Origin: a virus
Lineage: Duplodnaviria; Caudoviricetes
Strand: one strand, 5' to 3'
IMG/VR virus record: IMGVR_UViG_3300036821_000136
Span: 32,001-96,000 of that record
Length of the DNA: 64,000 nt
Part shown: in pieces, positions 20,130 to 61,835 of the stretch
Position numbering within the stretch: the stretch's first letter is position 1
Layout: every line of letters begins with the position of its first letter
The notes under the pieces: generated by a model
Told to the model about the DNA's origin: nothing
Seen by the model: only the letters and a program-made list of their open reading frames with translations
Databases searched by the model: none
Made by a program: the position numbers and the translations under genes

Positions 20130-20134
20130 CCCGG

Positions 20135-34268: not shown

Positions 34269-35069
34269 CTACGCCGTCAGGTCGAAGCTGACCTCGAGGA
34301 CCCGGCCGGCCAGCGTGACCTGCTCAAGGTAGGACCAGCAGCGCCCGCCGGGGTCGAACCACATCCACACGGTGGCCGACACGTAGCCGCCCGGGGCCAG
34401 GCCGAGCAGCGGCCCCTCCCGGCCGTCGTCGAGGATCGGGCGGGCCTCGTAGGCGGTGCGGCCGCGGGCGAACGTGACCGGCTTGTGCGGCCACCGGCCG
34501 GGGTCGGCGGTGCGCTGCTCGATCAGCGGCAGCGCGCCGCGCGGGTCGGCCAGCGGCACGGCGTGCAGCAGCTCCGGGCACGGCACCGACAGCTCGCCGG
34601 GGAACCACTCGACCGACAGCGCGAACGGCCGCCCGCCGTCCTCGTCGTCGCCGTCGGTCTCGAAGTAGCGCTGCTCGCGGCGCACCACCGGCGCGACCCC
34701 GTTGCGCGGCGCGGGCTCCAGGTCCAGCAGCGGGATCAGCCGCGGGTAGACGGCCGCGGCGTCGACGTAGTCCGCGGCGGTGACCTCGGTGCGCTCGGCG
34801 GGCGGCGGCCCGGTCCAGGACAGCCGCTGCACCGGCCCGTGCTTGTACCGGCCGGCCTGCACGTAGGAGCCGGACGGGTCGGTGCGGACCAGCCCGTCGG
34901 TGCGCAGCCAGGCGACGGCGCGGTTGGCGGTCGCCGGGCTGACGCCGTGGGCGTCGGCCAGCGCGCGCACCGACGGCAGCCGGATCCCGTCGGCGACGCG
35001 GCCGGTGGTGATGTCGGCGGCCAGTTCGTCGTGCAGCTGCTCGGCGGGCGACCGCAGGTCGATGGGCAT
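34269..35069 (-). CDS. GntR-family (HutC/UTRA, Kor-like) transcriptional repressor
   Basis: LPSVRALADAHGVSPATANRAVAWLRTDGLV plus a UTRA-like C-terminus; divergent from the transfer genes. Confidence 0.85.
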   Translation of the reverse strand: MPIDLRSPAEQLHDELAADITTGRVADGIRLPSVRALADAHGVSPATANRAVAWLRTDGLVRTDPSGSYVQAGRYKHGPVQRLSWTGPPPAERTEVTAADYVDAAAVYPRLIPLLDLEPAPRNGVAPVVRREQRYFETDGDDEDGGRPFALSVEWFPGELSVPCPELLHAVPLADPRGALPLIEQRTADPGRWPHKPVTFARGRTAYEARPILDDGREGPLLGLAPGGYVSATVWMWFDPGGRCWSYLEQVTLAGRVLEVSFDLTA

Positions 35070-35138
35070 GGCGGGGCCTTTCCGGTAGTCGTCCTCCCGG
35101 CGATCGTACGCCGTCGCGTGACACGACCGCGACAGTGT

Positions 35139-35152
35139 GAGACGATCGTCTC
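35139..35152. promoter_or_regulatory. Perfect 14-bp palindrome, candidate GntR operator
   Basis: GAGACGATCGTCTC in the divergent intergenic region. Confidence 0.5.
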
Positions 35153-35190
35153 TGACTCGTATCGCCCGTATCACCGGAGGAGCCCCGACA

Positions 35191-35844
35191 ATGTCAGCCA
35201 CAGATACAACCGGCGCGACGCCCGCCGAGCTGCTGTGGGCAGCGTGGCGCGGCCGCGTGTTCGCCGGCCTGGCGGTCGCGGTGTGTCTCACCGTGCCCGC
35301 CGCGTTCTTCGAGTCATTCCACGGCCTGATCGAGTGGTGCCAGGGCAACGGGCTGGGCGGCGTCTACGCCTGGTTCGCCCCGGCGATGGTCGACGTGTTC
35401 ATTTTGGCCGGCGAGACCGTGCTGCTGCTGGCCATCATGGAAAGCTGGGACTGGCCCGCCAAGGCCGCCGGCTGGGCCGCGATCGGCGCCGGGCTGGCCG
35501 TGTCCGTGGCCGGCAACGTCGGCCGCTCCGGCTGGCACGTGCCGCTGGAGCGGATGGCCACCTTCGCCGTCGCGCCGCTCGCGCTGGCCGGCCTGACCGC
35601 CCTGTTCCTGCTCGTCGCCAAGCGGCTCATGCACCCGCGTGTCCGCGACCGCGTCGACGCGAACGAGGACCTGGTGATCGCGCTGCTGCGGTACCGCGAC
35701 CACGCGGAGGCGGGCACGGTGCCGACCTTCGCCGAGGTGATGGCCGACCTGAACTGCGGGCAGCCCCGCGCCCGCCGTATCCGCGCGTGCCTGCCCGTGC
35801 TCACCCCGGTCCTGGCGACCCTGAACGGGACGGTGCACCCGTGA
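35191..35844 (+). CDS. DUF2637-like (Spd-type) membrane protein with C-terminal HTH
   Basis: SFHGL......G..G..AW..P..VD...L.GE, four TMs, VPTFAEVMADLNCGQPRARRIR. Confidence 0.75.
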   Translation: MSATDTTGATPAELLWAAWRGRVFAGLAVAVCLTVPAAFFESFHGLIEWCQGNGLGGVYAWFAPAMVDVFILAGETVLLLAIMESWDWPAKAAGWAAIGAGLAVSVAGNVGRSGWHVPLERMATFAVAPLALAGLTALFLLVAKRLMHPRVRDRVDANEDLVIALLRYRDHAEAGTVPTFAEVMADLNCGQPRARRIRACLPVLTPVLATLNGTVHP

Positions 35845-36254
35845 CCCGCACCGCGCGCCGGCCGCTGGCCCGGGTGATCGGCGACGTCGCTGACCGTCAC
35901 CGCGGCGCGGTCCGCCTCGTCGTGCTCGCCGTCGTGGCCGCCGGCGGGGCCGCCTGGCACTGGCACACCTGGCTGCCGCTCGTCTTCCTCGCCGGGGCGC
36001 TGACCGCCGAGGGCGGCCGGCTGGCCGCCGAGGCGTGGGGCTGGCAGCGGGCCGGCGGCAAGGCCGAGCTGCGGCGGCTGCGCCGCCACGGCGGGCCCGC
36101 CACCATGCGCGAGCTGCACCGGCACCTGTCGCTGCGCGCCGCCCGCCGCGCCGCCCGGGCCGCGCGCCCGTCCCTGGCCGCCCTGCGGCTCGCGGCGATC
36201 CCCGCGCACCAGGCGGGCATCGCGCTGGGCACCGCGAGGAGGTCAGCGCGATGA
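35841..36254 (+). CDS. Membrane protein (possibly the detached anchor of the coupling protein)
   Basis: Two TMs; coupled on both sides. Confidence 0.55.
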   Translation: MTRTARRPLARVIGDVADRHRGAVRLVVLAVVAAGGAAWHWHTWLPLVFLAGALTAEGGRLAAEAWGWQRAGGKAELRRLRRHGGPATMRELHRHLSLRAARRAARAARPSLAALRLAAIPAHQAGIALGTARRSAR

Positions 36255-37738
36255 GGCGTCCCTGGCAGTACGTCCGCCCCAGCGTCGACGTGTTCGGGTC
36301 GTTCCGCAGCGCGTATGCGGTGATCGGCCCGCCGAACAGCGGCAAGACCGCGTTCCTGGCCCGCGCCGCGCTGACCGCGCCCGGGGCGCTGCTCACGTTC
36401 TCGACCAACTACGAGCTGGCCCGCGACACCGCCGCCGCCCGGATCCGCGAGGACCGCGGCCTGGGCCCGGTGTGGTGGGTCAACCCCGGCCGCGCCGGCG
36501 GGTTCCCGTCCAACTGCGGCTACAGCCCGCTGGCCGGCTGCGAGTCGCCTGGCATGGCGATGGAGGCCGCCGGGGCGCTGATGGCCGCCGCGCCGCACGA
36601 CAAGAAGGACGCGCACTGGGACGCCCTGTCCAAGAGGTTCCTGCAGTACCTGATGCACGCCGCGGCGCTGCACCCCGACCGGCCCGACATCCGGATCGTG
36701 CGGCAGTGGGCCGCCGACCCGGCCAACCCCGACGAGCCGATGGAGGTGCTGGACCGGTGGGGCACCCAGGACTGGGCGCAGCAGCTCGACGACCTGGCCG
36801 CGCAGTGCCGCACCGACATGGACGGGAAGACCGCCACGGCGGTCGCCGGCGGCGTCCTCGCCGCCCTGGCCTGGCTCGATGACCCGGGGCTGGCGGTGCT
36901 GGCCTGCCCGCCGCCCGGATATGAGTTCGACGCCCGCGCGTTCCTGCGCGAGCGGGGCACCGTCTACGCGATCGGCGCCGACTCCGAGCACAACCCGCAG
37001 ACCCCGTTCCTGTCGTGCTTCTGCACGTACGTGTGGAACGAGGCGAACCGGGCCGCGCAGGACCCCCGTGAGGCGTGCGCGGCCCGGGGCAAGCTCGACC
37101 CGCCGCTGATGATCGTCGGCGACGAGCCGGGCAACTCCTGCCTGGTGCCCTACGACAAGTGGGCGTCGACGGCCGGCGGCCGCGGCGTCTGCCTGATCAC
37201 CGGCTGGCAGTCCGACGCGCAGATGCCGATGCGGTGGGGCGACCACGCCGCCCGGGTGATGCTCGACGCGTTCGGCGGGCTGGTCGTGTTCGGCGGGGTC
37301 AAGGGCGACCTGGCCGCGCTGGCGTCCTCGTGGGCCGCCGACAAGCCGACCTGGCACAAGGGCGAGCGCGGCGCGAAGGTGCTGGCCAGCGCGCCCACCT
37401 TCAGCCCGGCGGTGCTCGGCACCCTGAAGGACTACCGGGCGATGGTCAAGTACGGCAGGCGGCGCGCGTTCCTGGCCGACATGCCCGACGTCCGCCGCCA
37501 CCCGTGGTACCGCGAGGTCACCGCGGCCGACTTCCCGTCCGACCCGGTGTGGGAACCCGCCGCGCTGGCCGCCCGCACCAACCGCCGCCGCGTCGCCGCC
37601 GCCCGCGGCGGCCTGACCGCCGTCACCGACCACGGCCGCACCGCCGTCACCGACCAAGGAGCACCGTCATGGCCACCACAACTAAGCAGCAGGCGGGCCC
37701 TCCCGGGCGGACACCGTCCCGGCGGGCGCGCCGGCTAG
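36251..37738 (+). CDS. VirD4/TraG-like conjugative coupling ATPase
   Basis: Walker A GPPNSGKT, YSPLAGC, HAAAL, Walker B IVGDEPGN, and GRGVCLITGWQSDAQM..RWG...LVVFGG. Confidence 0.85.
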   Translation: MRRPWQYVRPSVDVFGSFRSAYAVIGPPNSGKTAFLARAALTAPGALLTFSTNYELARDTAAARIREDRGLGPVWWVNPGRAGGFPSNCGYSPLAGCESPGMAMEAAGALMAAAPHDKKDAHWDALSKRFLQYLMHAAALHPDRPDIRIVRQWAADPANPDEPMEVLDRWGTQDWAQQLDDLAAQCRTDMDGKTATAVAGGVLAALAWLDDPGLAVLACPPPGYEFDARAFLRERGTVYAIGADSEHNPQTPFLSCFCTYVWNEANRAAQDPREACAARGKLDPPLMIVGDEPGNSCLVPYDKWASTAGGRGVCLITGWQSDAQMPMRWGDHAARVMLDAFGGLVVFGGVKGDLAALASSWAADKPTWHKGERGAKVLASAPTFSPAVLGTLKDYRAMVKYGRRRAFLADMPDVRRHPWYREVTAADFPSDPVWEPAALAARTNRRRVAAARGGLTAVTDHGRTAVTDQGAPSWPPQLSSRRALPGGHRPGGRAG

Positions 37739-38499
37739 CGAAGCTGATCGGGCACCGCAAGGTCCGCCGCGACAAGCAGCTGCTGCACCGCCTGATGCAG
37801 GAGCTGCAGCGGGAGCTCAAGCGGGCCCGCAGCCCGTGGTCGCGGCTGCGCGCCAAGGCCCGCGAGGCGATGGACCGCCGCCGCAACCCCTACACCCGCG
37901 CCGACACCGGCCGGTCCTACCGCACCAGCGAGGCCGCCATGCGCGACCAGGGCGGCGGCGGCCGCCAGGCCAGGCAGCCGCAGGGCACGGGCCGCCAGGA
38001 CCGGCAGCAGGCAGCTGCGGGCCGCCACCGCGCCCCCGGGGGACCCCGTGAGCACGTCGGCGGCAGTACCCTGCGGACCCGCCGGAACCAGGCCCGCCGC
38101 CGCCGCCTGGCGGGCCGCTCGGGCTGGGCACGGCGCGGCTGGGACCGCGGGTGGCACGGCGCCGCCCAGCGCCAGGCCAACGTCCGCGCCTGGGGCGCCC
38201 GCCGCCGCGCCGCCTACCAGCGCGCCGCGGAGCCCGGGATCCGCCGCGCCGAGGTCCGCGCCGACGCCCGCGCCAACGGGATGGACAGGCGCCGCGCCGC
38301 CGCGCACGCCAACCGGGTGCACCCCGGCGCGGTCCGCCGCCGGTGGCGGTCCTCACGCGGCCCGGCCCGCGCGACCGCCGCCCGCGGCCAGGCCGTGCGC
38401 GCCGCCTCGTACGCCGGCCGCCGCGCCCCCCGGATGCGCCGGGTCCGCCGTCCCCGCGTGGCGCGGATGCCCCGCCTGATCGGCCGCGGCGGCCGGTAA
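37669..38499 (+). CDS. Extremely Arg-rich basic protein
   Basis: AAGGAG RBS before ATG 37669; fills the gap between coupling ATPase and HNH; GC3-rich codons. Confidence 0.55.
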   Translation: MATTTKQQAGPPGRTPSRRARRLAKLIGHRKVRRDKQLLHRLMQELQRELKRARSPWSRLRAKAREAMDRRRNPYTRADTGRSYRTSEAAMRDQGGGGRQARQPQGTGRQDRQQAAAGRHRAPGGPREHVGGSTLRTRRNQARRRRLAGRSGWARRGWDRGWHGAAQRQANVRAWGARRRAAYQRAAEPGIRRAEVRADARANGMDRRRAAAHANRVHPGAVRRRWRSSRGPARATAARGQAVRAASYAGRRAPRMRRVRRPRVARMPRLIGRGGR

Positions 38500-38541
38500 C
38501 ACACCGTATTTGTGCAGGTCAGCGACCCGAAGGAGAGACCG

Positions 38542-39270
38542 ATGACCACCACCCGAGAAGCCGCCCGCGAGGAGGCATGGAGCCGCGACGACGCGCTGTC
38601 CGCGTTCCTGGCCGTCACCGCCCGCCCTGACCCCGACGACGGCACCAGCAGCCTGATCGTCCTCGACGACGCGCAGCTGGCCCGGCTGCGCCCGGTCGTC
38701 GAGCGGGCCCGCCGCGTCGGCTACTGCCTGCAGTGCGACCCCGGCTTCCCCGAGGTGTGGGCGGCCGTCGGCGACGGCTGGCCGCACCTGGCCAGCTCCC
38801 ACGGCAAGGTCCGGTCCCGGCGCCGCACGCTGACCCTGCGGCCGATGAACCGGCCGCCCGGCGACGGCGTCGTCAAGTACGAGCAGACCGACCTCTGCTT
38901 CGGCGGCCGCCAGGTCACCAAGCCGGTCCACCAGATCCTGCTGCTGGCCTTCGAGGGCACCCGCCCGTCCGACAAGCACGAGTCCTGCCACGGCGACGAC
39001 GTGGCCAACCACAACCACTGGACCAACCTGCGCTACGGCCTCGACAACGGCCTGGACAAGGCGCGGCAGGCCGCGTTCCTCAGCCCGGGCGCGGCCGAGC
39101 GCCGGTCGGCCGCCGCCCGCCGCGCGCAGCGGGCCGGCCGGCAGCGCCTCGACGACCGCCGCGCCGCCGACCGCGCAACACACCGTGACGATGACACGCA
39201 GCGTAGCGGCCTGGCGAAGGTCACCGGCTGGCTTGCCCGTCACGGAATGTGGCGACGTGGGGACCGGTGA
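38542..39270 (+). CDS. NUMOD4-like/HNH endonuclease
   Basis: EVW..V......SSHGKVRS, VHQILLLAFEG.RP...SCHGDD...NHWTNLRYG. Confidence 0.75.
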   Translation: MTTTREAAREEAWSRDDALSAFLAVTARPDPDDGTSSLIVLDDAQLARLRPVVERARRVGYCLQCDPGFPEVWAAVGDGWPHLASSHGKVRSRRRTLTLRPMNRPPGDGVVKYEQTDLCFGGRQVTKPVHQILLLAFEGTRPSDKHESCHGDDVANHNHWTNLRYGLDNGLDKARQAAFLSPGAAERRSAAARRAQRAGRQRLDDRRAADRATHRDDDTQRSGLAKVTGWLARHGMWRRGDR

Positions 39271-39458
39271 CAGGCGGTGAGCGGAACCGATGACAGACCG
39301 ATGACACGTTTCCGCAGGTCAACGGCCTGCACGCTGCGTAACCGCGGAACTCGGAAGCCGGCACGCAAATTCGCCGCCTTCGGCGGCGCCTTCCGAGTTA
39401 GCCGACCGGTGACAGCGCGTGACGAACACGGAGCGTAGCCGCTCGCCCGGCGGTGACA
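39189..39458 (+). repeat. clt-like cluster of co-oriented 8-bp repeats CGRTGACA
   Basis: Copies start at 39189, 39265, 39288, 39299, 39407 and 39451; another lies at 41141. Confidence 0.6.
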
Positions 39459-39488
39459 GCGAGTGACGACGATGGGAGGCCACCCAGC

Positions 39489-41495
39489 GTGACGATGACC
39501 GGGACGACCCCGCTGCCCGTGACCGGCTTCCACCCGACGCACGGCTGGATCGCCGTCGCGGTCGCCGCGCTGTGCGTCGGGCTGGTCGTGAACGTGGTGG
39601 CGGGGCGGGTGCGGCGCGCCAACGGCAAGGAGGGCGGCGCGACGGCGGTCGGGCGGCTGCTGGCCGGGATCGACCTGCACCACGGCCGCGATCACTGGAC
39701 GAACGCGGGGTGGCTGACGCGGCCGGGAGAGGTCACCCTCGTCGGCGCCGGGACCAAGCGGGGGCGGGCGTCGTGGTGGCAGCACCAGAACTACCTGTTC
39801 CGGTCGGTGGTCCGCTCAGGGTGGCTGCCCGTGGCCGCTGCGTGGTTCCTGGCCGGGGCGGAGGCGGCCTGTGCGGCCGCGCTGGCGCTCGGGCTGTTCG
39901 CGTTCTACGTCAGGACCCGCACCCGCCCTGGGTGGCTGTCCGCGGCGTGGATCCCGCGGGTCCGCGGCGAGCACGACGCCGGCCGGGTCGGGCCGCTGGC
40001 TGAGGCGCTGGCCACCGCGACCAACGTCAGCAGCCGGGCGGTCGCCCGCGGGCTGCACTGGCACCCCGATTACGCCCTGTCACAGCCGGGCGATGAGGTG
40101 CTGAGCTGGGATATCCCGCCGGCGTTCAAGGCGGCGGGCGGCGAGCGGCGCACCGTCGAGGACCTGATCGAGTCGCGGGTCGGGTTCGGGCTGCAGGCGT
40201 CGTGGCGGACGTCGCAGGTGCCGCCGGTGCTGGTGATGAGCCGGGCCCGGTCGCTGCCGCCGATCGTGTTCCTGGCCGACGTGCTGGACCGGGTCGACGC
40301 GCTGCCGGCGTCCAAGACCGCGATCGGCCTGGATGACCTCGACCGGCTGGTCTGCTGGGACTGGGGGTGCGAGACCCCGCACGGCGTGATGAACGCCGGG
40401 TCGCGGCACGGCAAGAGCGAGACCAACAAGTGCCTGATCTGCCAGATCCTGCGCAAGGGCGGGTCGGTCACCGCGATCGACGTCAAGGAGATCAGTTTCC
40501 AGGGCCTCGAGGGACTGCCCGGGTTCACCCTGGTCAACGACCCCGGCGACATCCCGGCGATGTGGGAGGCGATCGCCGACTTCGCCGGCGAGCTGAACGT
40601 GCGGCGCGCCGAACGGGCGGCCGGGACGGCAACCAGCTGGCCGGTCAAGCTGCTGATCATCGAGGAGGCCAACCAGTTCGGCGAGATGACCGACGACTGC
40701 TGGGAGGACCTGCCCTGCGTCGACGACATGGAGCCCGAGGAGCGCGAGCTGCTGCGCGGCACCGAGCTGTGGAAGACCAAGGGCGCCAAGAAGACCCCGC
40801 GCGTGTGGCGGCACGTCAAGGCGGTCGCCTGGCAGGGCGCCGCGTTCAACATGCACGTGCTCGTCGACGGCCAGGACATGAAGGATTCGGTCGTCAAGGG
40901 GCTGCGCAACAGCCTCGGGATGCGGCTGCTCGGCGGGTACCTGCCGCAGCAGTGGAAGTTCCTCGTCGGCACCACCCCGGTCCCCGCCGCGCCGGCGGTC
41001 AAGGGCCGGTTCTGCCTGGTGATCGGCAACCAGCAGACGTGGACGCAGGCGATCCTCGCCGACACCGACCCCGACGTCAGCTCGCGGATCTGGCGCGACT
41101 TCGCGCTCAACGGCCGGCCCGACCCCGGCCCCGGCGGCGCCGGTGACAGCCACCGACGACAATTCACCGACGACAGCGTCCCGCCGCTGGTCAGCGCTAC
41201 AAACGGCGACGGCCCGTCACCGGTGACCGGCGACACGGCGATCCCCATGACGCTGCTGTCCATCGTGCGGATCTTCCTGGCCCCCGACGCCGGCGACGAC
41301 GACCAGAAGAAGCTGGCGGCCGCGCTCAAGCAGGACCGGCAGCGGCACGACCGCGGCGCGCTGCCGCCCGGGCTGATCTTCCCCGGCCAGGTCGGCACCG
41401 ACGGGCAGGCCGAGCTGTTCCTGCCCCACCAGGTGATCAAGTTCAACACCGCGCGGCGCGGCCAGCCCGCCGCCAGAAACGGAGGACCGTCATGA
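39489..41495 (+). CDS. FtsK/SpoIIIE-family (TraB-like) DNA translocase
   Basis: N-terminal TMs, TPHGVMNAGSRHGKS (Walker A variant), IDVK, LLIIEEAN (Walker B), MHVLVDGQ, LRNSLGMRLLG and KGR. Confidence 0.8.
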   Translation: MTMTGTTPLPVTGFHPTHGWIAVAVAALCVGLVVNVVAGRVRRANGKEGGATAVGRLLAGIDLHHGRDHWTNAGWLTRPGEVTLVGAGTKRGRASWWQHQNYLFRSVVRSGWLPVAAAWFLAGAEAACAAALALGLFAFYVRTRTRPGWLSAAWIPRVRGEHDAGRVGPLAEALATATNVSSRAVARGLHWHPDYALSQPGDEVLSWDIPPAFKAAGGERRTVEDLIESRVGFGLQASWRTSQVPPVLVMSRARSLPPIVFLADVLDRVDALPASKTAIGLDDLDRLVCWDWGCETPHGVMNAGSRHGKSETNKCLICQILRKGGSVTAIDVKEISFQGLEGLPGFTLVNDPGDIPAMWEAIADFAGELNVRRAERAAGTATSWPVKLLIIEEANQFGEMTDDCWEDLPCVDDMEPEERELLRGTELWKTKGAKKTPRVWRHVKAVAWQGAAFNMHVLVDGQDMKDSVVKGLRNSLGMRLLGGYLPQQWKFLVGTTPVPAAPAVKGRFCLVIGNQQTWTQAILADTDPDVSSRIWRDFALNGRPDPGPGGAGDSHRRQFTDDSVPPLVSATNGDGPSPVTGDTAIPMTLLSIVRIFLAPDAGDDDQKKLAAALKQDRQRHDRGALPPGLIFPGQVGTDGQAELFLPHQVIKFNTARRGQPAARNGGPS

Positions 41496-42973
41496 CGCAG
41501 CTGACCGAGCGGCTGTCCCTGTTCTGGGCGCGGCACCGCCCGTCGCGGGTGCCGGGCCGGTGGCGGCACGGCCCGGCCGCCACCCAGGTCCACAACTGGC
41601 GCAGCGCCCGCACCATCGCCCGCGGCCGGGTGCCCTACTGGCAGCGGGCCACCGCCGCCGCCGGGTCGCGGACCCCGGTCTACCGCAGCCGGATCAACCG
41701 GGCGACCGGCCGCCCGCACCGCGACGACGCGATGATGCGCCGCAGCGGCGACCAGGCGCTCGCCCGGACCCGGGACCGGCACACGCCCCGGCCGCGCCGG
41801 GTGGGCGGCCGGGGCGGACGGTGAGATGATTACGGGCCATGACCAGATTGCTACTGCTGGTAGCCGGCTACGGCGGCGGCATCCTGCTGACCTGGCGCGG
41901 CGACTGGCGGCACGGCCTGGCGATCTTCGCGCTCACCGCCGCCCTGCACTTCCTGTCCGTGCTGGCCTACCCCTGGCACCGCTGCTGGGCATGCCGCGGC
42001 CGCGGCGTGTTCTGGCTCGGCCGCAACCACGGCGACTGCGTGGTGTGCGGCAACCGCCGCCGCTACCCCCGCACCGGCGCCCGGATCCTGACCCCCGGCC
42101 GCGCCCGCAGAATGACCCAGCGAAGGAGAGGACGATGACCCACCCCGCGCACTACGAAATCATCGGCGGCCCCGCGCCGTACCCCGACTCGGCGGCCGCG
42201 CTCAGGGCGGCGGCTACCCGCCGTGACCAGGTCACGGCCAGGCAGGCGGCGGACATGCGCCGGCTATCCGCGGACACGCCCGGTAACGACCCCGACCCCG
42301 CCCGGCGGCAGCGGATGGCCCGCGCCTTCCTGCAGGCGGTCGGCGAAAGCCTCGACGAGGCGTGGCCCGAGCTGATCGCCCGCGCCTGCATATACGCGGG
42401 CATGGGCGCGCCGGTCCCGGGCGCCGACGAGTACGTCGACATGCTCGCCGCGGCGCTCGGCGTCCCGGCCGACGAGGCGCCGTTCGAGCTCGACCAGCTG
42501 ATCCCCGGCGTGCCGGACACGGCCAGGCACGAGGTGACGTCATGAGGGTCCGGATCGGCACCAGCGGGCTGCTGCTGCTGATCGCCCTCGCCGTGATCAT
42601 CCTGATCGCCGGGCTGCGCTGGCTCGGCTCCAACGCCGCCGCGATCCGCGCCGGGGTCGGCACCGGCGTGCTGGTCCTCGTCGTCGCCGGGGTGCTCGGC
42701 CTGGCCGTGCACCTGCTGCTGCAGGCGCACCGCGCCGAGCGGCTGCCCTGGCAGCGGCCCGTCCCGCCGCCCGTCCCGCCGGCCACGATGACCGCCGAGG
42801 TGCTGCCCGCCGCCGCGGCCGAGCTGACCGCCCCGGCGCCGGTCGCCGCGATCGCGCCGGCCCCGGCCGGGGTCACTGTCGTCGTGTCGACCGCGGAGGC
42901 GGCCGAGGCGTTCGCCCGCGGCCTGCACGTCCCGCCGCCGGCTGGCGGGCAGGGCAGCGACGGGAGCCCGTGA
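41492..42973 (+). CDS. Four small genes after the translocase (41492-41824 Arg-rich, 41839-42138 TM+Zn finger, 42135-42545, 42542-42973 membrane)
   Basis: ATGA coupling; TM segments; CxxC..CxxC. Confidence 0.55.
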
Positions 42974-43126
42974 CGACGGCGCGGACCCGGCCGGCGGCGA
43001 CAGCCACTGCCACATCGCCGGCCGGGTCCAGCTGGGACGTCACCCCGGCGGCCTTCCGTGGGGCCGGGGGGCACCACCGGACGCTACCGGGCGCCGCGCC
43101 GCCGCGCCGCCCGAACCGGGGAACTG

Positions 43127-43203
43127 ATGGCGTTTTTGTGACGGCCGCCCCGGCACCTGCCCCGGGCACTGATCCTGATGGCGCTTTGACGCAAAAACGC
43201 CAT
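43127..43203. repeat. 12-bp perfect inverted repeat at the start of the recombinase gene
   Basis: ATGGCGTTTTTG (43127-43138) / CAAAAACGCCAT (43192-43203), with a third partial arm at 43178. Confidence 0.65.
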
Positions 43204-43797
43204 AGGAACGCGCACGCGGGCAGCGAGCGGCCCGCCGAGCCGCTGACCCCCGCCGAGGCCGCCGCGCTGCTCGCCGCCGCGTCCCGCGCCTCCTGGAGCG
43301 GGATCCGCGACCGCGCCATGATCACCGTGCTGTACCGGTCGGGGCTGCGGATCAGCGAGCTGCTCGGCCTGCGGCTGGCCGACCTCGACACCGCGGCGCG
43401 GACGCTGCGGCTTCGGCACACCAAATCCGGCCGGCCGCAGATGCGCGGCTACCACCCCGGCGCCGACGACGCCCTGGAGCTGTGGCTGCAGCTGCGCCGG
43501 CCGATGGGTCCCGGGCCGCTGTTCTGCACCCGGGCGGGCGGCCCGGTCTGGCCGCAGCAGGTCCGCGCGACGCTGGCCCGCCTCGCCGGCCGCGCCGGGA
43601 TCGCCAAGGCGGTCCGGCCGCACGGGCTGCGGCACACCCTGGCCGTCGAGCTGCTGCGCGCCGGGGAGGACATCGCCGTGATCTCCAAGATCCTGGGGCA
43701 CTCGTCGATCGCCACCACGGCGCGCTACCTTGATCACCTGACCAACAGCGCCGCGCTCACCAGGCTCGCCGCGGCCGACCTGCCGCCCCTGGAGTGA
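43186..43797 (+). CDS. Short tyrosine recombinase (catalytic domain only)
   Basis: RDRAM..VLYRSGLRISE, TKSG, HGLRHT, LGHSSIATTARY. Start uncertain (ORF open from 42970). Confidence 0.88.
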   Translation: MTQKRHRNAHAGSERPAEPLTPAEAAALLAAASRASWSGIRDRAMITVLYRSGLRISELLGLRLADLDTAARTLRLRHTKSGRPQMRGYHPGADDALELWLQLRRPMGPGPLFCTRAGGPVWPQQVRATLARLAGRAGIAKAVRPHGLRHTLAVELLRAGEDIAVISKILGHSSIATTARYLDHLTNSAALTRLAAADLPPLE

Positions 43798-44885: not shown

Positions 44886-45257
44886 GAACGGCCTTGCGAT
44901 CTGGAGAGGTCACCGGAGCCAAGTCAGGAACGGGCCAATCCGCCGGCCGGGGAACGACAACAGCGTCGACCAGCCCCGCCCGCCGGACCCTGCCCGGCGC
45001 GCACCCCAGACCCCGGTGAACCTCACCGCCCGCCCGGCGGCCCGCAGAGCGATTCTGCGGGGCCGCCCGGCCGGGGGGTAGCCGCTACCCGGCGGCGGCC
45101 GCGTACGGTCCGCAGCGCGTAGCCTGGCGGGCTACGTCCGCCAGTACGCGATCGCCGCCGCGATGACGACGGCGGCCAGGAGGAGCGCGGCGGCGGTCAG
45201 GCCGGCCAGCAGGCCCGTCGCCCACGCGGGCATCAGGCCGCCTCCTTGGCGCACGAG

Positions 45258-45549: not shown

Positions 45550-46115
45550 GATGCCCCCCACAGCTGCCGGTCGGCCCAGTCCCACCACTGCGCCGGGGTG
45601 GTCTGCCGCTCCGCGCCCGGCTCCGGCGACGCCCACCCGGTCAGCTTGTACAGCATCGCCGCGAGCGAGCTGCACACCACGTGGCCGGGCAGCTCCTTGT
45701 CGTTCCCGCCCCACCGCCACAGCGGGTCGATCGCCTTGGCCAGGTTGTGCAGGCCGATCGACCGGGCGGTGTCCTGGCCGATGCCGACCCAGTCGTAGTC
45801 GATGCCGAGCGACGCGGCGCACGAGGCCAGGAACACCTCCAGCTGCCCGGCGTCGTTGGGCCGCGGCTGGGCGTGGTTGCCGCGGGTCCGCGAGTCGGTC
45901 AGGAACGGGGTGCAGTCGACCGGGCCGACGCCGCCGGGCCGCCCCTCGATGCCCATCCACCGGCCGGCCTGGTCCTGGTGGGTCACGACGATGACGTGGT
46001 TGGCGACGCCCGGGCGGCCGCGCAGCACCGCGCCGATCCGGATCACCGTGCCGAAGAACGAGTTGGACGACCAGACCGCCAGGATCACGCCCGGCTCGAC
46101 CGGGACGGCGGTCAC
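45546..46115 (-). CDS. Permuted papain-like NlpC/P60 (YiiX/YebB-like) protein
   Basis: NHVIVV..IEG..GGV, YDW and VVCSSL, with His before Cys. Confidence 0.65.
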   Translation of the reverse strand: MTAVPVEPGVILAVWSSNSFFGTVIRIGAVLRGRPGVANHVIVVTHQDQAGRWMGIEGRPGGVGPVDCTPFLTDSRTRGNHAQPRPNDAGQLEVFLASCAASLGIDYDWVGIGQDTARSIGLHNLAKAIDPLWRWGGNDKELPGHVVCSSLAAMLYKLTGWASPEPGAERQTTPAQWWDWADRQLWGAS

Positions 46116-47020
46116 CGGGTCACCGGCGCGGTCCAGGTCGCCGCCCACGTCTGCGCGCCGACCTTGCCGTCGACGCCGAGGCCCTTCTCGGCCTGGAACG
46201 CGCGGGCCTTGGCGTCGCAGTCCGGCCCGAACCGGCCGTCCTGGGCGAGCTTCCAGCCGCGGCGGACCATCTGGACCTGCCAGGTGTGCACGTTGGCGTT
46301 GTCCGCGCCGCCGTAGTAGCCCGAATGGCAGTAGCCGCTGGAGGACGGCTGGCCGAGGTAGTGCCCGGCGCCGTAGGGGAACGGCGGCGCCTTGGTGCCC
46401 GGCTTGACGTCGGCCGGGGCGGCCGGCGCGGCGCCGCCGGCCAGCGCCCGGAACTGCGCGATCGTCCCCTTGAACGCGCTGAAGTCGACCCGCTGGCCGT
46501 TGAAGGCGTGCGCGTCGGTCCACTGCCACACCGCCGGGGTCATCCCGCCGTAGGGCGCCCAGCCCTGCCCGGTGTCGGAATAGCCGCTGTACGCCGACGA
46601 CCACAGCGCCATGTGGCGGCTGATCATCGGGCTCAGCGACGGGGAGCCGATCTGCTGCCAGTACCAGTGCGGGAAGTAGAGCAGGTTGCAGACGCCGCCG
46701 GCCTTCCGGTAGGCGTCGATGAACCCGGTGGCGTCGCCCATGCCCGGCCGGGAGGACCCGGTGGGCTCCCAGTCGAGCATCAGCGGCAGCCCGCCGTCGC
46801 GGGCGTTGCACCAGGCGGCCTGCCCGGCCGGGTTCCCGGCGTGCAGGAAGTGGTAGGCGATACCGAGCGCGCCGGCCGCCTTGGCGCGGGCGGCGGCGTC
46901 GGTGAACCACTTGCCGGCCTGCCAGCCGGTGCCCTCGGTGGTCTTCATGGCCACCGCGGGCGCGCCGGACAGGCCGATGCCGCCCTGGAACGGGGAAACG
47001 TCGGGGAAGTGGATCGTCAT
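46112..47020 (-). CDS. Endolysin: GH25 muramidase plus peptidoglycan-binding domain
   Basis: DVSPFQ, KTTEG, AYHF, LDWE, WQWT; DGRFGP...FQ...GL.VDGKVG..TW. Confidence 0.9.
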   Translation of the reverse strand: MTIHFPDVSPFQGGIGLSGAPAVAMKTTEGTGWQAGKWFTDAAARAKAAGALGIAYHFLHAGNPAGQAAWCNARDGGLPLMLDWEPTGSSRPGMGDATGFIDAYRKAGGVCNLLYFPHWYWQQIGSPSLSPMISRHMALWSSAYSGYSDTGQGWAPYGGMTPAVWQWTDAHAFNGQRVDFSAFKGTIAQFRALAGGAAPAAPADVKPGTKAPPFPYGAGHYLGQPSSSGYCHSGYYGGADNANVHTWQVQMVRRGWKLAQDGRFGPDCDAKARAFQAEKGLGVDGKVGAQTWAATWTAPVTR

Positions 47021-47847: not shown

Positions 47848-49545
47848 TCAGTTGACGTTGATCGGGAAGCCGCCGTTGAAGATCATCGCGGTCGCGCCGG
47901 TGATGGTCGGGATGGTGAAGTCCCCGTTGGTGTTGGCCGTGGCGTACCAGTTGCCGACCGCCGTCGCGCCGAACGAGGACATCGGGATGCCGGTGGGGGA
48001 CAGCGGCCGGTAGCCGGCCGGCAGCGTGAACAGCGTCCCGCCCACGATCGCGCCGCCGCCGCTCTTGTTGATCGTGCCGACGATCCACACGATGCCCTCG
48101 GACAGCATCCGGTAGGACACCTTGATCCAGTTCGCCTGGTTGACGTAGGCGGAGGTCAGCGTGGCGGTGTGCCAGCCCTCCTGCTGCGGCGGGTTGGACG
48201 CCGACCCGCCGGTGCCCGGCACCTTGGCGTACATCTGGCCGACGTTGTAGATGCTGACGCCGTTCCAGTCAGCGGACAGCATCAGGTACGAGCCGCTGCC
48301 GACCGAGGGCGCCTGGTTGTAGATGATCTCGCAGCTGGCCGAGCTGGTCCCGTCGGAGGAGTTGAGCTCCAGCCCCACATAGTCGTCGTGCCCGGCGGTG
48401 TTCTTGCGCGGCCCCTGCAGCAGCATCTGGGCGAAGCTGCTGTTGTACACGCCCTGCAGGTAGCCGTCGATCACGCTGGCCTGGTTGAAGTTCACCGCGT
48501 AGACGCCCTGGCCGGAGCTGGTGGTGATCCGCACCTGCACGTTCGGCGCGGTCCCGGCGATCAGGGTCGCGCCCTGGATGGTGGTCCCGTCGACGATCCC
48601 GGCGTACAGGATCCCGGCGGCCATCTGCGCAGCGGTGATCGTGGCCGCCTGGATCTGCGCCGCGGTGATCGTGTTCGCGGCGATCTGCGTCGCCGTGATC
48701 GTGTTGGCCACCATCCGGTCGCCGGTGATCGACGCGGCCGCGATCTGCGCCGCGGTGATCGTGTTCGCCGCGATCAGCGCCGCGGTGATCGCGTTGGCGG
48801 AGATCGCCTGCGTGCCGAAGGTGTAGGGGGTCCAGCCGCTGCTGGTCTGATACTGCGACAGCGCGTTGCCCGCGCTGGTGTTGAACCACAGGTCGCCGGG
48901 GTTCGGCGAGGCCGGCGCCGACGGGGCGAAGCTGACCGCGACGCCGCCGGCGGAGATGGTGAACCCGAGCTGCGCCTGCATGATCGACCCGGCCGGGATC
49001 GCCTGCGCGGCGGTGATCGGGGTCGCCGACGCGGCGGTCGACGGCGCGGAGACGGCGCCGGAGGAGTTGACCGCGACCAGCGCGGCCCAGTATTGGGTGC
49101 CCGCGGTCAGCCCGGGCACGACGACCACGCCGGGCGCGATCATGGTCCGCTGCAGCGTGGCCGCCGACGGGGTGAACCCGGCCCCCGACGGTGACACGTG
49201 CACCTGCACGCAGATGAAGTCGGACAGCGGCGGCGTGCCGCCGAGCTGCCCGTCCCACCCGACGACCAGCCCGCCGATCGCCGCGCTGACCGTCGGCGTG
49301 TCCGGCGCCGCCGGCGGCGGCGCGTTCATGTCCACGACGGTGTTGGTGCCGTCGGGCTGCGCGCCGATCAGCTGCCGGGTGGTGCCCGCCCCGTCGGTGA
49401 CGGTCAGCGCTCCGCCGTCGATCGAGGAGTAGCCGAGCTGCGCGGTGCGCTGCCCGGCCTCCAGCTGGACGATCCGCTTCTGCAGCGCCGCGATCTCGCG
49501 GCCGAGCGCGGCGACCGACGCCGCGGTGATCGTGTCCAGCGTCAA
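47848..49545 (-). CDS. Minor tail protein / tail fibre
   Basis: Coiled coil, FN3-like domain, ITAAQIAAN-type repeats and an FTLPAGYRP receptor-binding-type C-terminus. Confidence 0.8.
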   Translation of the reverse strand: MTLDTITAASVAALGREIAALQKRIVQLEAGQRTAQLGYSSIDGGALTVTDGAGTTRQLIGAQPDGTNTVVDMNAPPPAAPDTPTVSAAIGGLVVGWDGQLGGTPPLSDFICVQVHVSPSGAGFTPSAATLQRTMIAPGVVVVPGLTAGTQYWAALVAVNSSGAVSAPSTAASATPITAAQAIPAGSIMQAQLGFTISAGGVAVSFAPSAPASPNPGDLWFNTSAGNALSQYQTSSGWTPYTFGTQAISANAITAALIAANTITAAQIAAASITGDRMVANTITATQIAANTITAAQIQAATITAAQMAAGILYAGIVDGTTIQGATLIAGTAPNVQVRITTSSGQGVYAVNFNQASVIDGYLQGVYNSSFAQMLLQGPRKNTAGHDDYVGLELNSSDGTSSASCEIIYNQAPSVGSGSYLMLSADWNGVSIYNVGQMYAKVPGTGGSASNPPQQEGWHTATLTSAYVNQANWIKVSYRMLSEGIVWIVGTINKSGGGAIVGGTLFTLPAGYRPLSPTGIPMSSFGATAVGNWYATANTNGDFTIPTITGATAMIFNGGFPINVN

Positions 49546-49558
49546 CCCGCCCTCCCGG

Positions 49559-50743
49559 TCAGTAGTAGGTCGGGGCGTAGCTGAACGAGTCCGACCGTGC
49601 CGTGGTCAGCGTCTGGATACCGGTCGCCGGGTTGAGGGTGATCGCGGTCACCCGGTGCCATATCTGCTGCCCGCCGAGCCAGCCCGTCGCGAACTGCAGC
49701 AGGATGTCATCGCCCACGCTGACCGACCCCAGCGGCGCGTTCGGGTGGTTGGCGATGGTGACCGACGCGGCGCCGCCCATGTTCTGCCGGGCGGCGAGCT
49801 CCCGCGACAGCAGCGGCTTGAGCGCCCCGGCGGCGGTGATGCCCTGGTCCTGGTAGACCCCGAACCGGCGCAGCCGCCCGTCGTCGACCGCGACCTGCCC
49901 CTGGATCGTCGTCGACCCCGACCCGGCGCCCGCCCCCGCGATCCCGTTGGCGTAGGTCGACCCGTCGCGGGTCAGCGGCACCACCGCGGCCATGTTCTCG
50001 TCCTCGACGAACCGCAGGTCGGTCCGGCGGGTCCCGGCGCGGGGCACCGCGAACGACAGCGTGTGGCTGACCTGCTCGCCGCCCGCCGCCCAGGCGTGGC
50101 TCTCGGTCATGTCGGCCGGGATGGTCCCGGCGAGGCGGGTGATCTCCTGGCCCACGTCGGTCAGGTTCCACGGCGCCATCTCCCACGGCTGCGCCGCGAC
50201 CGCCGCGACGGTGCCGTGCGCCGCCACGGCGGGGGTGCCGAGCCGGGCGGCGCTGTGGGTGGCCGCGTCGACGGCCAGGTGCAGGTTGCCGGACGGGAAC
50301 GACTGCAGGTGCGCCCACAGGAACCGGATCCCGTCGAGCGGGTCCATGTTGACCCGCTGCGTGTCGGGGCCGGTGTAGGGCTGCCCGGGCGGGTAGCCGC
50401 GGAACCCGGTCGCCGTCACCGCCCAGGTCGGCCCGTTGAAATCGGAGTGCGTGTGGATGCCGCCCCACCGGATCTGCCCGTCGGCGACCGCGTAGATCAG
50501 GGTCGACCACTCGTCCAGCAGCGGCCGCCCGTCGGCGGCGGCCGCCAGCGCGATCGCCGGGGCGATGTCGGCGGTCAGGGAGTCGGCGGTCAGGTCCCAC
50601 GTCATCGCCACGTTCTCCAGCGGCAGCCCGGCCCGGTCCAGCCACGCGCCGGTGACCGCCCGCTGCGCGTAGTACACCCACGACGACGGCCGCACCAGCC
50701 GCAGATCCGGCACCGCCAGCGGCGCCGCGGCGAGGCTGCTCAT
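49559..50743 (-). CDS. Minor tail protein (baseplate hub-like)
   Basis: Position in the tail operon; IRWGGI, G.G.G and VSVGDDI patterns. Confidence 0.75.
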   Translation of the reverse strand: MSSLAAAPLAVPDLRLVRPSSWVYYAQRAVTGAWLDRAGLPLENVAMTWDLTADSLTADIAPAIALAAAADGRPLLDEWSTLIYAVADGQIRWGGIHTHSDFNGPTWAVTATGFRGYPPGQPYTGPDTQRVNMDPLDGIRFLWAHLQSFPSGNLHLAVDAATHSAARLGTPAVAAHGTVAAVAAQPWEMAPWNLTDVGQEITRLAGTIPADMTESHAWAAGGEQVSHTLSFAVPRAGTRRTDLRFVEDENMAAVVPLTRDGSTYANGIAGAGAGSGSTTIQGQVAVDDGRLRRFGVYQDQGITAAGALKPLLSRELAARQNMGGAASVTIANHPNAPLGSVSVGDDILLQFATGWLGGQQIWHRVTAITLNPATGIQTLTTARSDSFSYAPTYY

Positions 50744-51720
50744 TGGGTCTGCAGCGCCTCTTGCCACTCGATGTCGACGACGTAACCGCTGGACCCGTCC
50801 AGCTGCCAGTAGGCGGTGCCGACCGCGCCGCCCTTGCCCTGGCCCTGCAGCTGGAAGTTCTGCGTCGTGCCCCGCATCGCCGGCGGGATCGACAGCGTGT
50901 CGACGCAGATGCCGGTGTCCCGGTAGGGGTTGGTCGCGGACTGGTAGTTGCTCGAGTCCATGATCATCGTCTGCGACAGCAGCGTGCCGAGCTGGAACCG
51001 GATGTTGGCCCACGGCCCGTTCGTCGACCCCGACACCCACACCGACATGACCTGCGTCCACATGCAGACGACCCGGGCGCTGACCGCCCAGGAGGGCACC
51101 GCGACACTGAACGACGCGGCCGGCGGCCAGGTGACGAACGCCGCCTGGCTGTTCAGCAGCCGCCACGTGCCGACGGGCAGGTTCACCGCGACCAGGGTGC
51201 GGTCGCGGCGGGCGTTCAGCATCGACCGCACGTCGGTGATCATCGCCTGGGTGATGACCGAGGTGGAGGCGGGCACGTCGACGCGGGCCAGCGGGATCGC
51301 GGACATGCCGCCGGGCGGCGCGGTGGTGCCGGCGACGACGCCGGAGATCACGCGGGTGTAGACGATCTGGTCGGTCAGCGGGTTGTGCGACCAGCCACCG
51401 CCGGCGACGGTGGGATCCTCGACCTTCGCCACGATCAGGTCCGAGCGGGCCGCCCCGCCCGTCGCCGCGATGGACACCAGGTCATCGCCCACGTTGTAGC
51501 CGTAGTACGACCCCTGCCAGGCGGCCTCGGCGCCGGCGATGACGCACGCGCCGTTGGACGCCCGCACCTGGCCCGAGGCGGTGGCGGTCTGCTTGACGTA
51601 CAGGTCGGCGGCGCCGACGACGCCCTGCCCGGAGCGGGTCGCGGACTGCAGCTGCAGCCGCCACAGCGACCCGGGCAGCGGGTTCCCGTCGACCGCGTAG
51701 AGGCCCTGCGTCCAGGTCAT
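50740..51720 (-). CDS. Minor tail protein
   Basis: RSDLIVAKVEDP, IPLARVDVPAST..IT..MITDVR. Confidence 0.75.
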   Translation of the reverse strand: MTWTQGLYAVDGNPLPGSLWRLQLQSATRSGQGVVGAADLYVKQTATASGQVRASNGACVIAGAEAAWQGSYYGYNVGDDLVSIAATGGAARSDLIVAKVEDPTVAGGGWSHNPLTDQIVYTRVISGVVAGTTAPPGGMSAIPLARVDVPASTSVITQAMITDVRSMLNARRDRTLVAVNLPVGTWRLLNSQAAFVTWPPAASFSVAVPSWAVSARVVCMWTQVMSVWVSGSTNGPWANIRFQLGTLLSQTMIMDSSNYQSATNPYRDTGICVDTLSIPPAMRGTTQNFQLQGQGKGGAVGTAYWQLDGSSGYVVDIEWQEALQTQ

Positions 51721-51734
51721 CGCGCCCCTTTCCC

Positions 51735-52064
51735 TCAGCCCTCGTCGCCGGGGGCCGGCGGCAGCATGGACAGCCAGGTCAGCGTGTCGGCCGCGGCCGA
51801 GCAGGCGTACAGCACCGGCGCCGGGTGCGACGGGTCGGCGGGCGCCACCGGCGCGCCGAACCCCATCGCGCCGGGGATGAACGTGGGGACGTTCACCGCC
51901 AGCGGGAAGCCGGTCGCGGTGGTCACGTCCGGCCCGCCGACGAACGTGCCGCCGCCGGCGCCGCTCGGGTCGATGACGAGGCAGCCGTGCGGGCCGACCC
52001 GGCAGACCGGCACCGCGCCGCCGCCGGCGGGCAGCGGAACCTGGCCGGTGTAGTAGCGCGCCAT
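51735..52064 (-). CDS. Small tail-region protein
   Basis: Coupled to the Dit-like gene. Confidence 0.55.
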   Translation of the reverse strand: MARYYTGQVPLPAGGGAVPVCRVGPHGCLVIDPSGAGGGTFVGGPDVTTATGFPLAVNVPTFIPGAMGFGAPVAPADPSHPAPVLYACSAAADTLTWLSMLPPAPGDEG

Positions 52065-53449: not shown

Positions 53450-53459
53450 GCCTGCCTCC

Positions 53460-56951: not shown

Positions 56952-57194
56952 GCGCGCCCCCTAACCCTTGGTCGCCGCCCGCCGCGGCGATGAACGCGGC
57001 GACCTGCGCGGCGCGCGCCGCCGGGTCAGCGGCCCGCGCCGGCTCGGTCTCCTCCTCCAGCACGTCGGCCGGGTCGTCCCAGTCGGCGGCGCCCTCCCAG
57101 CCCAGCCGGCCCGCGATCACCGTCAGCAGCCGCAGCTCGGCCCGGGCGCGGGCCTCGTCGGTCCAGATCGCCTCGACCGCGTCCAGCCAGGCCG

Positions 57195-58855: not shown

Positions 58856-58942
58856 AGCTCACTCCTCACGTGCGCGCCGGGCCGGCGCGGCGGTGTTCAT
58901 TTGCGGGGGGTGAGGCCGGCGCGGTGGCCCCAGAAGGTGGTG

Positions 58943-60654: not shown

Positions 60655-60663
60655 GGTCCCCCG

Positions 60664-61110: not shown

Positions 61111-61122
61111 GGCCCCTCCCGG

Positions 61123-61578: not shown

Positions 61579-61640
61579 GGTGGGTCTCCTGTCTCGGTGA
61601 CGGCCGCGCGGCAGGCGGCGGCCGGGCGTAGCCCGCCGGG

Positions 61641-61811: not shown

Positions 61812-61835
61812 GCCAACCTCCTCCGGGCCGGGTTC

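Follow-up and report, generated by a model that had tools for sequence, protein, structure and literature searches.

A candidate repressor-controlled DNA-transfer module in a tailed phage of a high-GC actinomycete

Why would a tailed phage carry genes laid out like those of transferable actinomycete plasmids? The question is raised by a locus at positions 34269-43797 of a 64,000-nt window, the whole stretch of DNA analysed here, which corresponds to positions 32001-96000 of one 108,246-bp IMG/VR virus record (IMGVR_UViG_3300036821_000136; G000:C1). Coordinates below are window positions unless stated otherwise. At this locus, a gene for a HutC-type GntR regulator faces a largely start/stop-coupled operon encoding, among other products, a DUF2637-like membrane protein, a split VirD4-type coupling protein, a membrane-anchored FtsK/TcpA-like ATPase and a tyrosine recombinase (Table 1). 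The best single reading, which we favour tentatively, is that the locus is a native, repressor-controlled DNA-transfer module that allows conjugation-like spread without virions. We read it in this way because its two ATPases belong to families with known members that move DNA in conjugation, one VirD4-type and the other FtsK/TcpA-type as judged by its fold.

The source is a near-complete tailed phage (siphovirus) of a high-GC actinomycete. The record has 75.5% GC and a CheckV completeness of 97%, and it contains a full siphovirus set of virion, packaging and lysis genes, with TerL, portal and head protease encoded beyond the tail module. Genes were called by frame analysis of third-position GC (GC3), because plain lists of open reading frames (ORFs) are useless at 75.5% GC. 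The preliminary description of this DNA had placed the locus in an apparently intact tailed phage, between early cassettes and the lysis and virion genes, as a largely coupled gene run. All three statements hold: early genes lie on one side and the endolysin and tail genes on the other, and the operon has 4-bp start/stop overlaps at 35841, 36251, 41492, 42135, 42542 and 42970. Two genes sited between the two ATPases, an Arg-rich ORF and a NUMOD4/HNH_3 endonuclease, had been omitted from that description. The claim that the locus uses the same ribosome-binding site (RBS) as the phage genes also stood. The window contains 21 copies of an extended Shine-Dalgarno motif, GAAGGAGAG, where 0.18 would be expected, and the copies at 38529 and 42122 are inside the locus. 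All copies fall within 625-42130, among early and middle genes, and none belongs to the late virion and lysis genes; this confinement suggests two translation-initiation regimes within a single phage.

The first of the two ATPases is a VirD4/TraG-type coupling protein (type IV coupling protein, T4CP), as had been proposed. The product of its larger gene matches Pfam TraG-D_C (3.1e-8, 34 bits against a cut-off of 22) and has intact Walker A and Walker B motifs. Its relatives match PF10412 (TrwB_AAD_bind), PF02534 (T4SS-DNA_transf) and PF12696, and JGI names them VirD4. We found homologues with about 30% identity on 118 actinobacterial plasmids, and no match when the INPHARED cultured phages were searched with this protein. 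A single 567-aa ORF starting at 36035 had been taken as the gene, and this is not the best model. The membrane ORF and the ATPase ORF lie in different frames and are joined through an ATGA overlap at 36251-36254. In four related loci (L023, L037, L045 and L050) both parts are fused into one protein of 554-609 aa, the N-terminal part of which matches the small membrane ORF of this phage. The split looks, from sequence comparison, like a stable feature of a subclade and not a recent accident, because many relatives, including those with 76-80% identity, are also 450-495 aa long.

Directly upstream of the coupling protein lies the gene that had been described as encoding a DUF2637 membrane protein. 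This assignment was upheld in part. The product matches phrog_733 at 8e-7, whereas its match to DUF2637 (PF10935) has an E-value of 0.004 and 17.5 bits, under the Pfam gathering threshold of 22.8. We call it DUF2637-like on the basis of its topology, the phrog_733 match and the presence of true DUF2637 genes in equivalent modules. The same module elsewhere has a bona fide DUF2637 protein in locus L050 (2e-11) and a weak one in L045 (18.1 bits, below the cut-off). In a pairwise comparison, the similarity between the DUF2637-like protein and a true DUF2637 neighbour was not significant.

The second ATPase had been described as an FtsK-like membrane ATPase, and this was borne out by its fold and not by Pfam. 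An AlphaFold2 (AF2) model built from 25 relatives (predicted local distance difference test, pLDDT, 73.5) has long helices at residues ~19-48 and ~102-144, an alpha/beta motor at 164-540 and a conserved C-terminal helix/strand domain at 589-656. The two N-terminal helices in the model are taken as membrane spans, the second being of low confidence. Foldseek ranked TcpA first (6e-15), followed by the FtsK motor (5e-14), EccC/EssC (1e-10 to 1e-7) and VirB4/HerA (about 1e-5). VirB4 was considered as an identity for this protein and rejected in favour of FtsK/TcpA on these values, 6e-15 versus about 1e-5. With a profile of the family, TcpA was the sole PDB match of a related kind (E 0.013). One relative carries an added FtsK_gamma domain; FtsK gamma is a DNA-recognition domain. 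A complex prediction between the motor (residues 160-545) and the ATPase domain of the coupling protein (1-440) scored 0.00, which counts neither way.

This ATPase represents a large family. In a profile search of 1.8 billion cluster representatives, a cut-off of E <= 1e-3 admitted 1073 members, and the stricter E <= 1e-30 left 204, or about 200 clusters at 50% identity. All ten members that we looked up are hypothetical or nameless, and three members used as queries against the INPHARED cultured phages gave no matches. BFVD contains phage proteins of the same fold, some of them named DNA translocase FtsK.

A conserved cis element precedes the ATPase gene. The 220-bp gap upstream of this gene holds three of the four copies of GGTGACAG in the window, and the boxes are arranged as GTGACAG-nnn-GTGACGA, with pairs on both sides of a stem-loop. 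The density of GTGACR at this element is the highest in the 108-kb genome, at six per 250 bp, with the runner-up at three. In 21 related loci taken together, no 5-mer is more enriched than GTGAC in the 350 nt that precede the ATPase gene (100 occurrences against 14.7 expected from local composition, in 20 of the 21 loci), where GTGAC is six-fold denser than in the rest of these loci. Strong hairpins of differing sequence also occur upstream of the ATPase gene in relatives, and Rfam found no known RNA family at the element. The clt locus of pIJ101 has a similar anatomy, an inverted repeat with short direct repeats (PMC3583192). The GTGAC array and hairpin are a candidate clt-like site or operator of the translocase gene.

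The regulator facing the operon had been described as a divergent GntR-UTRA repressor, which agrees with our results, the GntR domain being found by Pfam and the UTRA domain through the fold. Neither Pfam nor NCBIfam sees the latter. An AF2 model from eight relatives (pLDDT 78) resembles the full-length HutC regulators YvoA, DasR and PhnF (7e-14 to 3e-12) and also UTRA-only structures (about 1e-7). The palindrome GAGACGATCGTCTC in the divergent promoter region is a candidate operator to which the GntR protein may bind, as read from the sequence. Relatives of the regulator with 80-89% identity share contigs with relatives of the coupling protein and the ATPase.

Judged by its sequence and surroundings, the block is native to the phage and is not an inserted actinomycete integrative and conjugative element (AICE); the preliminary description had argued likewise. 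Att-like direct repeats around the block would have pointed to insertion; no exact direct repeat reaching 14 bp is common to both flanks, and three 13-mers are the longest. No tRNA was found at the block, its GC content is inside the 70-78% range of the window, and it shares GAAGGAGAG with the phage genes. We found the locus core in at least three further viral contigs, which otherwise have almost nothing in common with this phage. One of them (G001, 78 kb) has GntR, HNH and ATPase genes. The second (G002, 128 kb, 100% complete, with direct terminal repeats and TerL) has the T4CP, an intein-bearing ATPase and, in its locus L045, the weak DUF2637-like match. The third (G004, 73 kb) has the small basic protein, T4CP, a distant ATPase, an HNH-like ORF and the bona fide DUF2637 protein. 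Among relatives with 80-90% identity, GntR and T4CP lie on one 88-kb contig, and GntR and ATPase on one 18.5-kb contig. Taken together, these observations make an independently inserted AICE very unlikely. Separately, we observed an IS605-family TnpB gene (OrfB_IS605 and Cas12f1-like TNB domains; L050 6323-7570, + strand) just upstream of the T4CP module of G004. In G002 (L045), an S13-like H2TH domain protein (5e-26; 12561-12890, + strand) directly follows the ATPase and a DUF3631 protein is nearby (19857-20780, - strand); neither has an evident counterpart in the window.

Table 1. Positions of the features of the transfer-like locus and of neighbouring elements in the window, with the evidence for each.
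Feature	Position	Strand	Evidence
HutC-subfamily GntR repressor with UTRA-type effector domain	34269-35069	-	Pfam GntR 6e-10; fold
Perfect 14-bp palindrome GAGACGATCGTCTC, candidate operator	35139-35152	.	Divergent promoter region; read from sequence
DUF2637-like polytopic membrane protein, helix-turn-helix-like tail at C-terminus	35191-35844	+	Pfam below cut-off; phrog_733
VirD4-type coupling protein, split-off transmembrane domain (two helices and basic linker, 137 aa)	35841-36254	+	Comparison with fused T4CPs
VirD4/TraG-type coupling protein, nucleotide-binding domain (495 aa)	36251-37738	+	TraG-D_C; Walker A GPPNSGKT, Walker B IVGDE
Arg-rich low-complexity ORF, GC3 near 1.0	37669-38499	+	Frame plot; AAGGAG-ATG start
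NUMOD4 and HNH_3 homing-type endonuclease	38542-39270	+	phrog_1492/959/59, 1e-13 to 4e-8
Conserved cis element: GGTGACAG/GTGACGA boxes paired 10-11 bp apart, around stem-loop 39340-39397	39266-39497	+	Sequence and conservation
Membrane-anchored FtsK/TcpA-like P-loop ATPase	39489-41495	+	AF2 model and Foldseek
Small basic protein	41492-41824	+	tblastn, 49-53% identity to homologues adjoining T4CP in L037 and L050; no family match
Small membrane protein, CxxC...CxxC zinc-ribbon motif	41839-42138	+	Translation; no family match
Small soluble ORF	42135-42545	+	Translation, coupled; no family match
Small membrane ORF, proline-rich	42542-42973	+	Translation, coupled; no family match
Tyrosine recombinase, catalytic domain only	42970-43797	+	Pfam Phage_integrase 2.6e-34, residues 92-257
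Variant GTAGCCCGCCGGGCTAC hairpin	45119-45135	.	Convergent gap separating transfer operon from late genes
GH25 endolysin	46112-47020	-	Gene annotation
Tail module: tape measure, Dit, minor tail and fibre proteins	47848-63782	-	Gene annotation

The Arg-rich ORF had no family match in the scans made. The endonuclease keeps, among its relatives, the HNH motifs GWPHEVS..GRIR and H..DD..N...NL, and its gene stands immediately 5' of the ATPase gene in at least nine related loci. The P-loop region of the ATPase is broken by inteins in several relatives. Such inteins (LAGLIDADG_3 or Intein_splicing domains) were observed near the Walker A motif of the ATPase homologue in L045 of G002 (10438-11447) and in P0024, P0029 and P0033. 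We read the HNH gene and the inteins as selfish elements that follow a conserved gene and do not belong to the machine. A role of the HNH protein as a dedicated translocase partner or nickase was considered and set aside; its NUMOD4/HNH_3 architecture and the inteins fit a homing element.

Downstream of the ATPase, the small membrane proteins noted earlier are the zinc-ribbon protein and the proline-rich one. The zinc-ribbon protein was compared with the RRQRL zinc-binding protein of plasmid pPaSha3, and this identity was rejected for want of similarity. From position alone, the two small ORFs that follow it are possible Spd-like proteins. The recombinase at the end of the operon had been called a short tyrosine recombinase, and the block had been said to lack a full-length integrase; indeed, this lone recombinase consists of the catalytic core. 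Its R-K-H-R-H-Y residues are present by eye, its N-terminus is disordered and without a core-binding domain, and XerC/XerD/XerA and FimB/E-type invertase profiles fit its C-terminal half only.

Elsewhere in the record we found a DnaB-like helicase and a 610-aa ParB-like protein (phrog_6218 at 6e-37; TIGR00180 at 20 bits only, a weak match). The final 126 bp of the contig (genome positions 108121-108246) repeat positions 17-142, and genome positions 1-60 form a perfect hairpin-like palindrome of assembly type, which looks like an artefact at a circular or permuted junction. On the basis of this end repeat and terminal hairpin, the molecule is probably circular or terminally redundant, despite the IMG/VR classification of its ends as linear.

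Several further observations concern the early region and the module ends. An ArdC N-terminal domain protein (anti-restriction; Pfam ArdcN 6.8e-7, above the cut-off) is encoded among the early genes at 10217-10855 (+ strand); ArdC-type genes are typical of conjugative plasmids. Also among the early genes are a RecE-like exonuclease and RecT-like annealase pair and an ATP-dependent DNA ligase (1701-4285 and 17989-18999, + strand). On the opposite strand of this region, an accessory cassette at 20135-23341 encodes a cytochrome P450 (4e-23), a major facilitator superfamily (MFS) transporter (3e-23) and an unknown protein of 272 aa, and resembles cargo for metabolism or efflux, not a function of the phage. 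A 17-bp hairpin, GTAGCCCGCCGGGCTAC, stands at the ends of gene modules genome-wide (15944, 30807, 45119, 61628 and genome position 318, with variants at 45119 and 318) and is probably a shared terminator or regulatory stem-loop.

How does the locus compare with known transfer systems? The nearest precedent in kind, and the one cultured case, is pZL12, or phage ZL12, cited as a Streptomyces conjugative plasmid-phage (Zhong et al. 2010, J Bacteriol 192:3747, as cited in PMC3583192 and PMC4487206). Its conjugal transfer is summarized as requiring the major tra gene and adjacent genes (PMC3583192). The two phages share a siphovirus-type genome of about 90-108 kb across the pair, a GntR-UTRA gene transcribed away from an operon whose last gene is large and FtsK/SpoIIIE-like and which lies beside virion genes, and tail proteins and TerL with 30-39% identity (pZL12 sequence, GQ919031). 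Pfam is blind to the FtsK-like protein in both. They differ in that their transfer genes have no detectable similarity, in that no match to the VirD4-type protein was found in pZL12, and in that pZL12 has ParA/ParB and a 350-aa integrase, whereas here ParA was not found and the recombinase is a catalytic core only.

The left half of the locus has its closest counterpart in actinobacterial plasmids that carry a MobF relaxase and a T4CP. In pPaSha3 of Pseudonocardia alni (NZ_CP052774), GntR is divergent from genes for a zinc-binding protein, DUF2637, a small ORF, T4CP and two hypothetical ORFs, and the order of GntR facing DUF2637, small ORF and T4CP is that of the phage. The T4CPs of pPaSha3 and of a 49.5-kb plasmid of S. 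malaysiensis (NZ_CP023993) are about 30-32% identical to that of the phage. Unlike the phage, these plasmids have the T4CP as one polypeptide and lack the pair of HNH and FtsK-like genes; they also have a MobF relaxase and ParA, neither of which was found in the phage record.

The preliminary description had likened the locus to the Kor, Spd and TraB layout of pIJ101, pSAM2 and pSVH1. This model fits only in outline, because those systems are without a VirD4-type protein, which the phage operon has; to our knowledge, a single motor suffices for them. The likeness lies in a membrane-anchored FtsK-like motor (in the phage at the level of fold only) with small membrane proteins encoded downstream of it, a putative repressor of the Kor type from the GntR family, a candidate clt-like arrangement of short repeats with an inverted repeat near the motor gene, and no relaxase, none having matched the three profiles searched in the phage. 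In TraB, a C-terminal winged helix-turn-helix domain binds 8-bp repeats of the clt locus. The phage motor differs in having no FtsK_SpoIIIE match at the sequence level and in belonging to a family that is mostly viral in its nearest ESM Atlas clusters and rare in actinomycete genomes. An AICE backbone would be expected to include a full-length integrase and a Rep (RepSA, RepAM or Prim-Pol), whereas the phage has a catalytic-core recombinase, no tRNA and no flank repeat of 14 bp or more. RepSA, Pra, Pif and a long integrase are not evident among the annotated genes, no search having been aimed at these.

The motor itself is closest in structure to TcpA of the Clostridium perfringens plasmid pCW3 (PDB 6o1w), and both have an N-terminal membrane anchor, although their identity is only 14-15%. 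The Tcp locus of pCW3 also has VirB4-, VirB6- and VirB8-like genes and hydrolase genes, which were not identified in the phage. The closest annotated relatives of the ATPase are the 'pRL2-11' or DUF87 proteins of Streptomyces linear and circular plasmids. They were found on 58 plasmids with 23-26% identity over 53-74% of the ATPase length (E down to 1e-19) and give weak DUF87, FtsK_SpoIIIE and AAA_10 signals; their neighbourhoods differ from that of the phage gene and are without an HNH or T4CP partner. For enterococcal pELF plasmids, a minimal transfer machine made up of analogues of VirB4 and VirB6 together with a VirD4-like protein has been described (PMC13492992), so very reduced two-ATPase machines exist.

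From these comparisons we propose how the module might work. The HutC-type GntR repressor would hold the divergent operon down. On derepression, a membrane-anchored, hexameric FtsK/TcpA-like translocase would be made, which would recognise the phage genome at the GTGAC-box/hairpin element beside its own gene and would pump phage DNA, in double-stranded form, through a septum or where two cells touch. The split VirD4-type coupling protein and the DUF2637-like and small membrane proteins would assist the translocase, and the catalytic-core recombinase would resolve or re-circularise the transferred or replicated genome. The outcome would be a second, virion-free route of spread between cells or hyphal compartments, as reported for pZL12. 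The preliminary description had gone further and called the phage a candidate conjugative phage-plasmid. The part of this that concerns a plasmid-style transfer gene set in a near-complete siphovirus stands. The phage-plasmid part, and with it a plasmid or temperate state, stays conjecture because the record yielded neither ParA nor an integrase with a core-binding domain, and Rep was not searched.

Several results weigh against transfer between cells. Some concern the ATPase. It has no match in Pfam, NCBIfam, PHROGs or PADLOC, Pfam FtsK_SpoIIIE included, and its Walker B motif has EE, not DE. The nearest ESM Atlas clusters of the family are 66-97% viral, and the family occurred in two of 401 sampled Actinomycetes genomes and on one contig of a Streptosporangiaceae metagenome-assembled genome (MAG); with mostly viral clusters and such cellular rarity, it is unlike a typical conjugation gene. 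FtsK-like ATPases are also found in other phages without a known transfer role, and the tra gene of pZL12 has no detectable similarity to the ATPase. Several relatives with long flanks have no T4CP, and none occurs anywhere in G001, while the ATPase is constant. The GTGAC array could be a plain promoter or operator. Others concern missing partners. VirD4-type proteins normally partner a relaxase, and the relaxase profiles PF03432, PF08751 and PF13814 gave no match at E <= 0.1 in the whole 108-kb record, MobA_MobL, Mob_Pre and Rep_trans not having been searched. VirB4, VirB6 and VirB8 were not seen among the proteins scanned, without a dedicated profile search of the record. No peptidoglycan hydrolase was found in the block, no integrase with a core-binding domain was found, and ParA (PF13614) had no match in the whole record.

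The most probable alternative is that the machinery handles DNA inside the cell, which we consider unlikely. An FtsK-like motor, loaded at the GTGAC site, would shift phage genomes about inside a host that is infected or lysogenic, whether through septa as they close, into spore compartments or towards a site of replication or packaging on the membrane, with the T4CP and the recombinase serving segregation and resolution. Chromosomal FtsK/SpoIIIE acts within the cell alongside a resolving tyrosine recombinase, and the mostly viral distribution of the ATPase family, its rarity in cellular genomes, the lack of a relaxase match and of evident mating-pore genes all suit such a role. So does the targeting of the ATPase gene by inteins and a homing-type HNH gene, which is typical of conserved core phage genes. 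However, the layout of GntR, DUF2637 and T4CP is that of transferable plasmids, and we know of no segregation role for VirD4-type proteins. In addition, the ATPase family is absent from the cultured phages searched in INPHARED and is therefore not a general phage core function.

A phage that is mobilisable only, which would be transferred by the machinery of another element, is less probable still. In this case the coupling protein would dock phage DNA on the mating channel of a resident conjugative plasmid or integrative and conjugative element (ICE), with a relaxase provided in trans or with the tyrosine recombinase acting as an atypical relaxase. For the latter there is a possible analogy in TcpM of pCW3, a tyrosine recombinase-like atypical relaxase. 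A phage with a T4CP, no evident VirB4 and no relaxase found is what this would look like, and the left half of the locus resembles MobF/T4CP plasmids typed as mobilisable or non-mobilisable in PLSDB. The catalytic-core recombinase is within the operon, and the top structural match of the ATPase is TcpA of pCW3. Yet among relatives it is the T4CP that is optional and the FtsK-like gene that is constant, and no pair of oriT and relaxase was identified.

We give about the same small chance to a function in conflict, in which the module, carried in a prophage, would exclude or interfere with the DNA of competing phages or conjugative plasmids, with the coupling protein as a decoy, for example, or the membrane ATPase expelling or blocking DNA. 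Repressor control, the accessory-like placement between the early and late regions and the small membrane proteins, which are typical of exclusion systems, would fit, and the ArdC N-terminal domain gene elsewhere in the genome suggests that the phage takes part in plasmid-type conflicts. Against this, PADLOC found no match among the 10 locus proteins scanned, we know of no exclusion system that pairs a T4CP with an FtsK-like motor, and the conserved cis element beside the translocase gene points to the phage's own DNA as what is recognised. Finally, that a foreign AICE or ICE was inserted into the phage, or that the assembly is chimeric, is already largely refuted and highly improbable: plasmid-like gene content and a recombinase at the right edge would fit it, but in DNA of 75% GC the flanks have no exact direct repeat longer than 13 bp in common, no tRNA was found, the phage-specific RBS occurs inside the block, the GC content is within the range of the window, at least three other viral contigs contain the core, and in close relatives GntR, T4CP and ATPase are still found on shared contigs.

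The transfer module that we favour has a bearing on how phages and conjugative elements are seen. Gene flow is usually divided between the two as separate routes, and phage-plasmids are as a rule not considered conjugative. A conjugative plasmid-phage is not new in kind, because pZL12 already established one; what would be new is a different machinery and its spread among uncultured phages. The locus suggests that the idea behind pZL12 is wider, with a split VirD4-type protein and a new FtsK-like family with its cis site distributed across otherwise unrelated uncultured phages. More speculatively, and with considerable doubt, high-GC actinomycetes may host a class of 'conjugative phages' defined by this large, unnamed and mainly viral family of FtsK/TcpA-like translocases. 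Each member would have its own GTGAC-box/hairpin site and would often be joined by VirD4-type and DUF2637 proteins. If this is true, it would be routine for tailed phages to pass their double-stranded genomes between cells, or along the mycelium, without virions, by a machinery distinct from both the Streptomyces TraB systems and the canonical type IV secretion system (T4SS). A conjugation-like exit could provide an escape from receptor-based resistance and a means to spread in mycelial hosts without lysis, and it would blur predictions of host range made from virion proteins. The motor, its candidate site and the repressor together offer a testable handle on a question of actinomycete conjugation, by what means a ring of the FtsK type recognises a complete double-stranded replicon and moves it.

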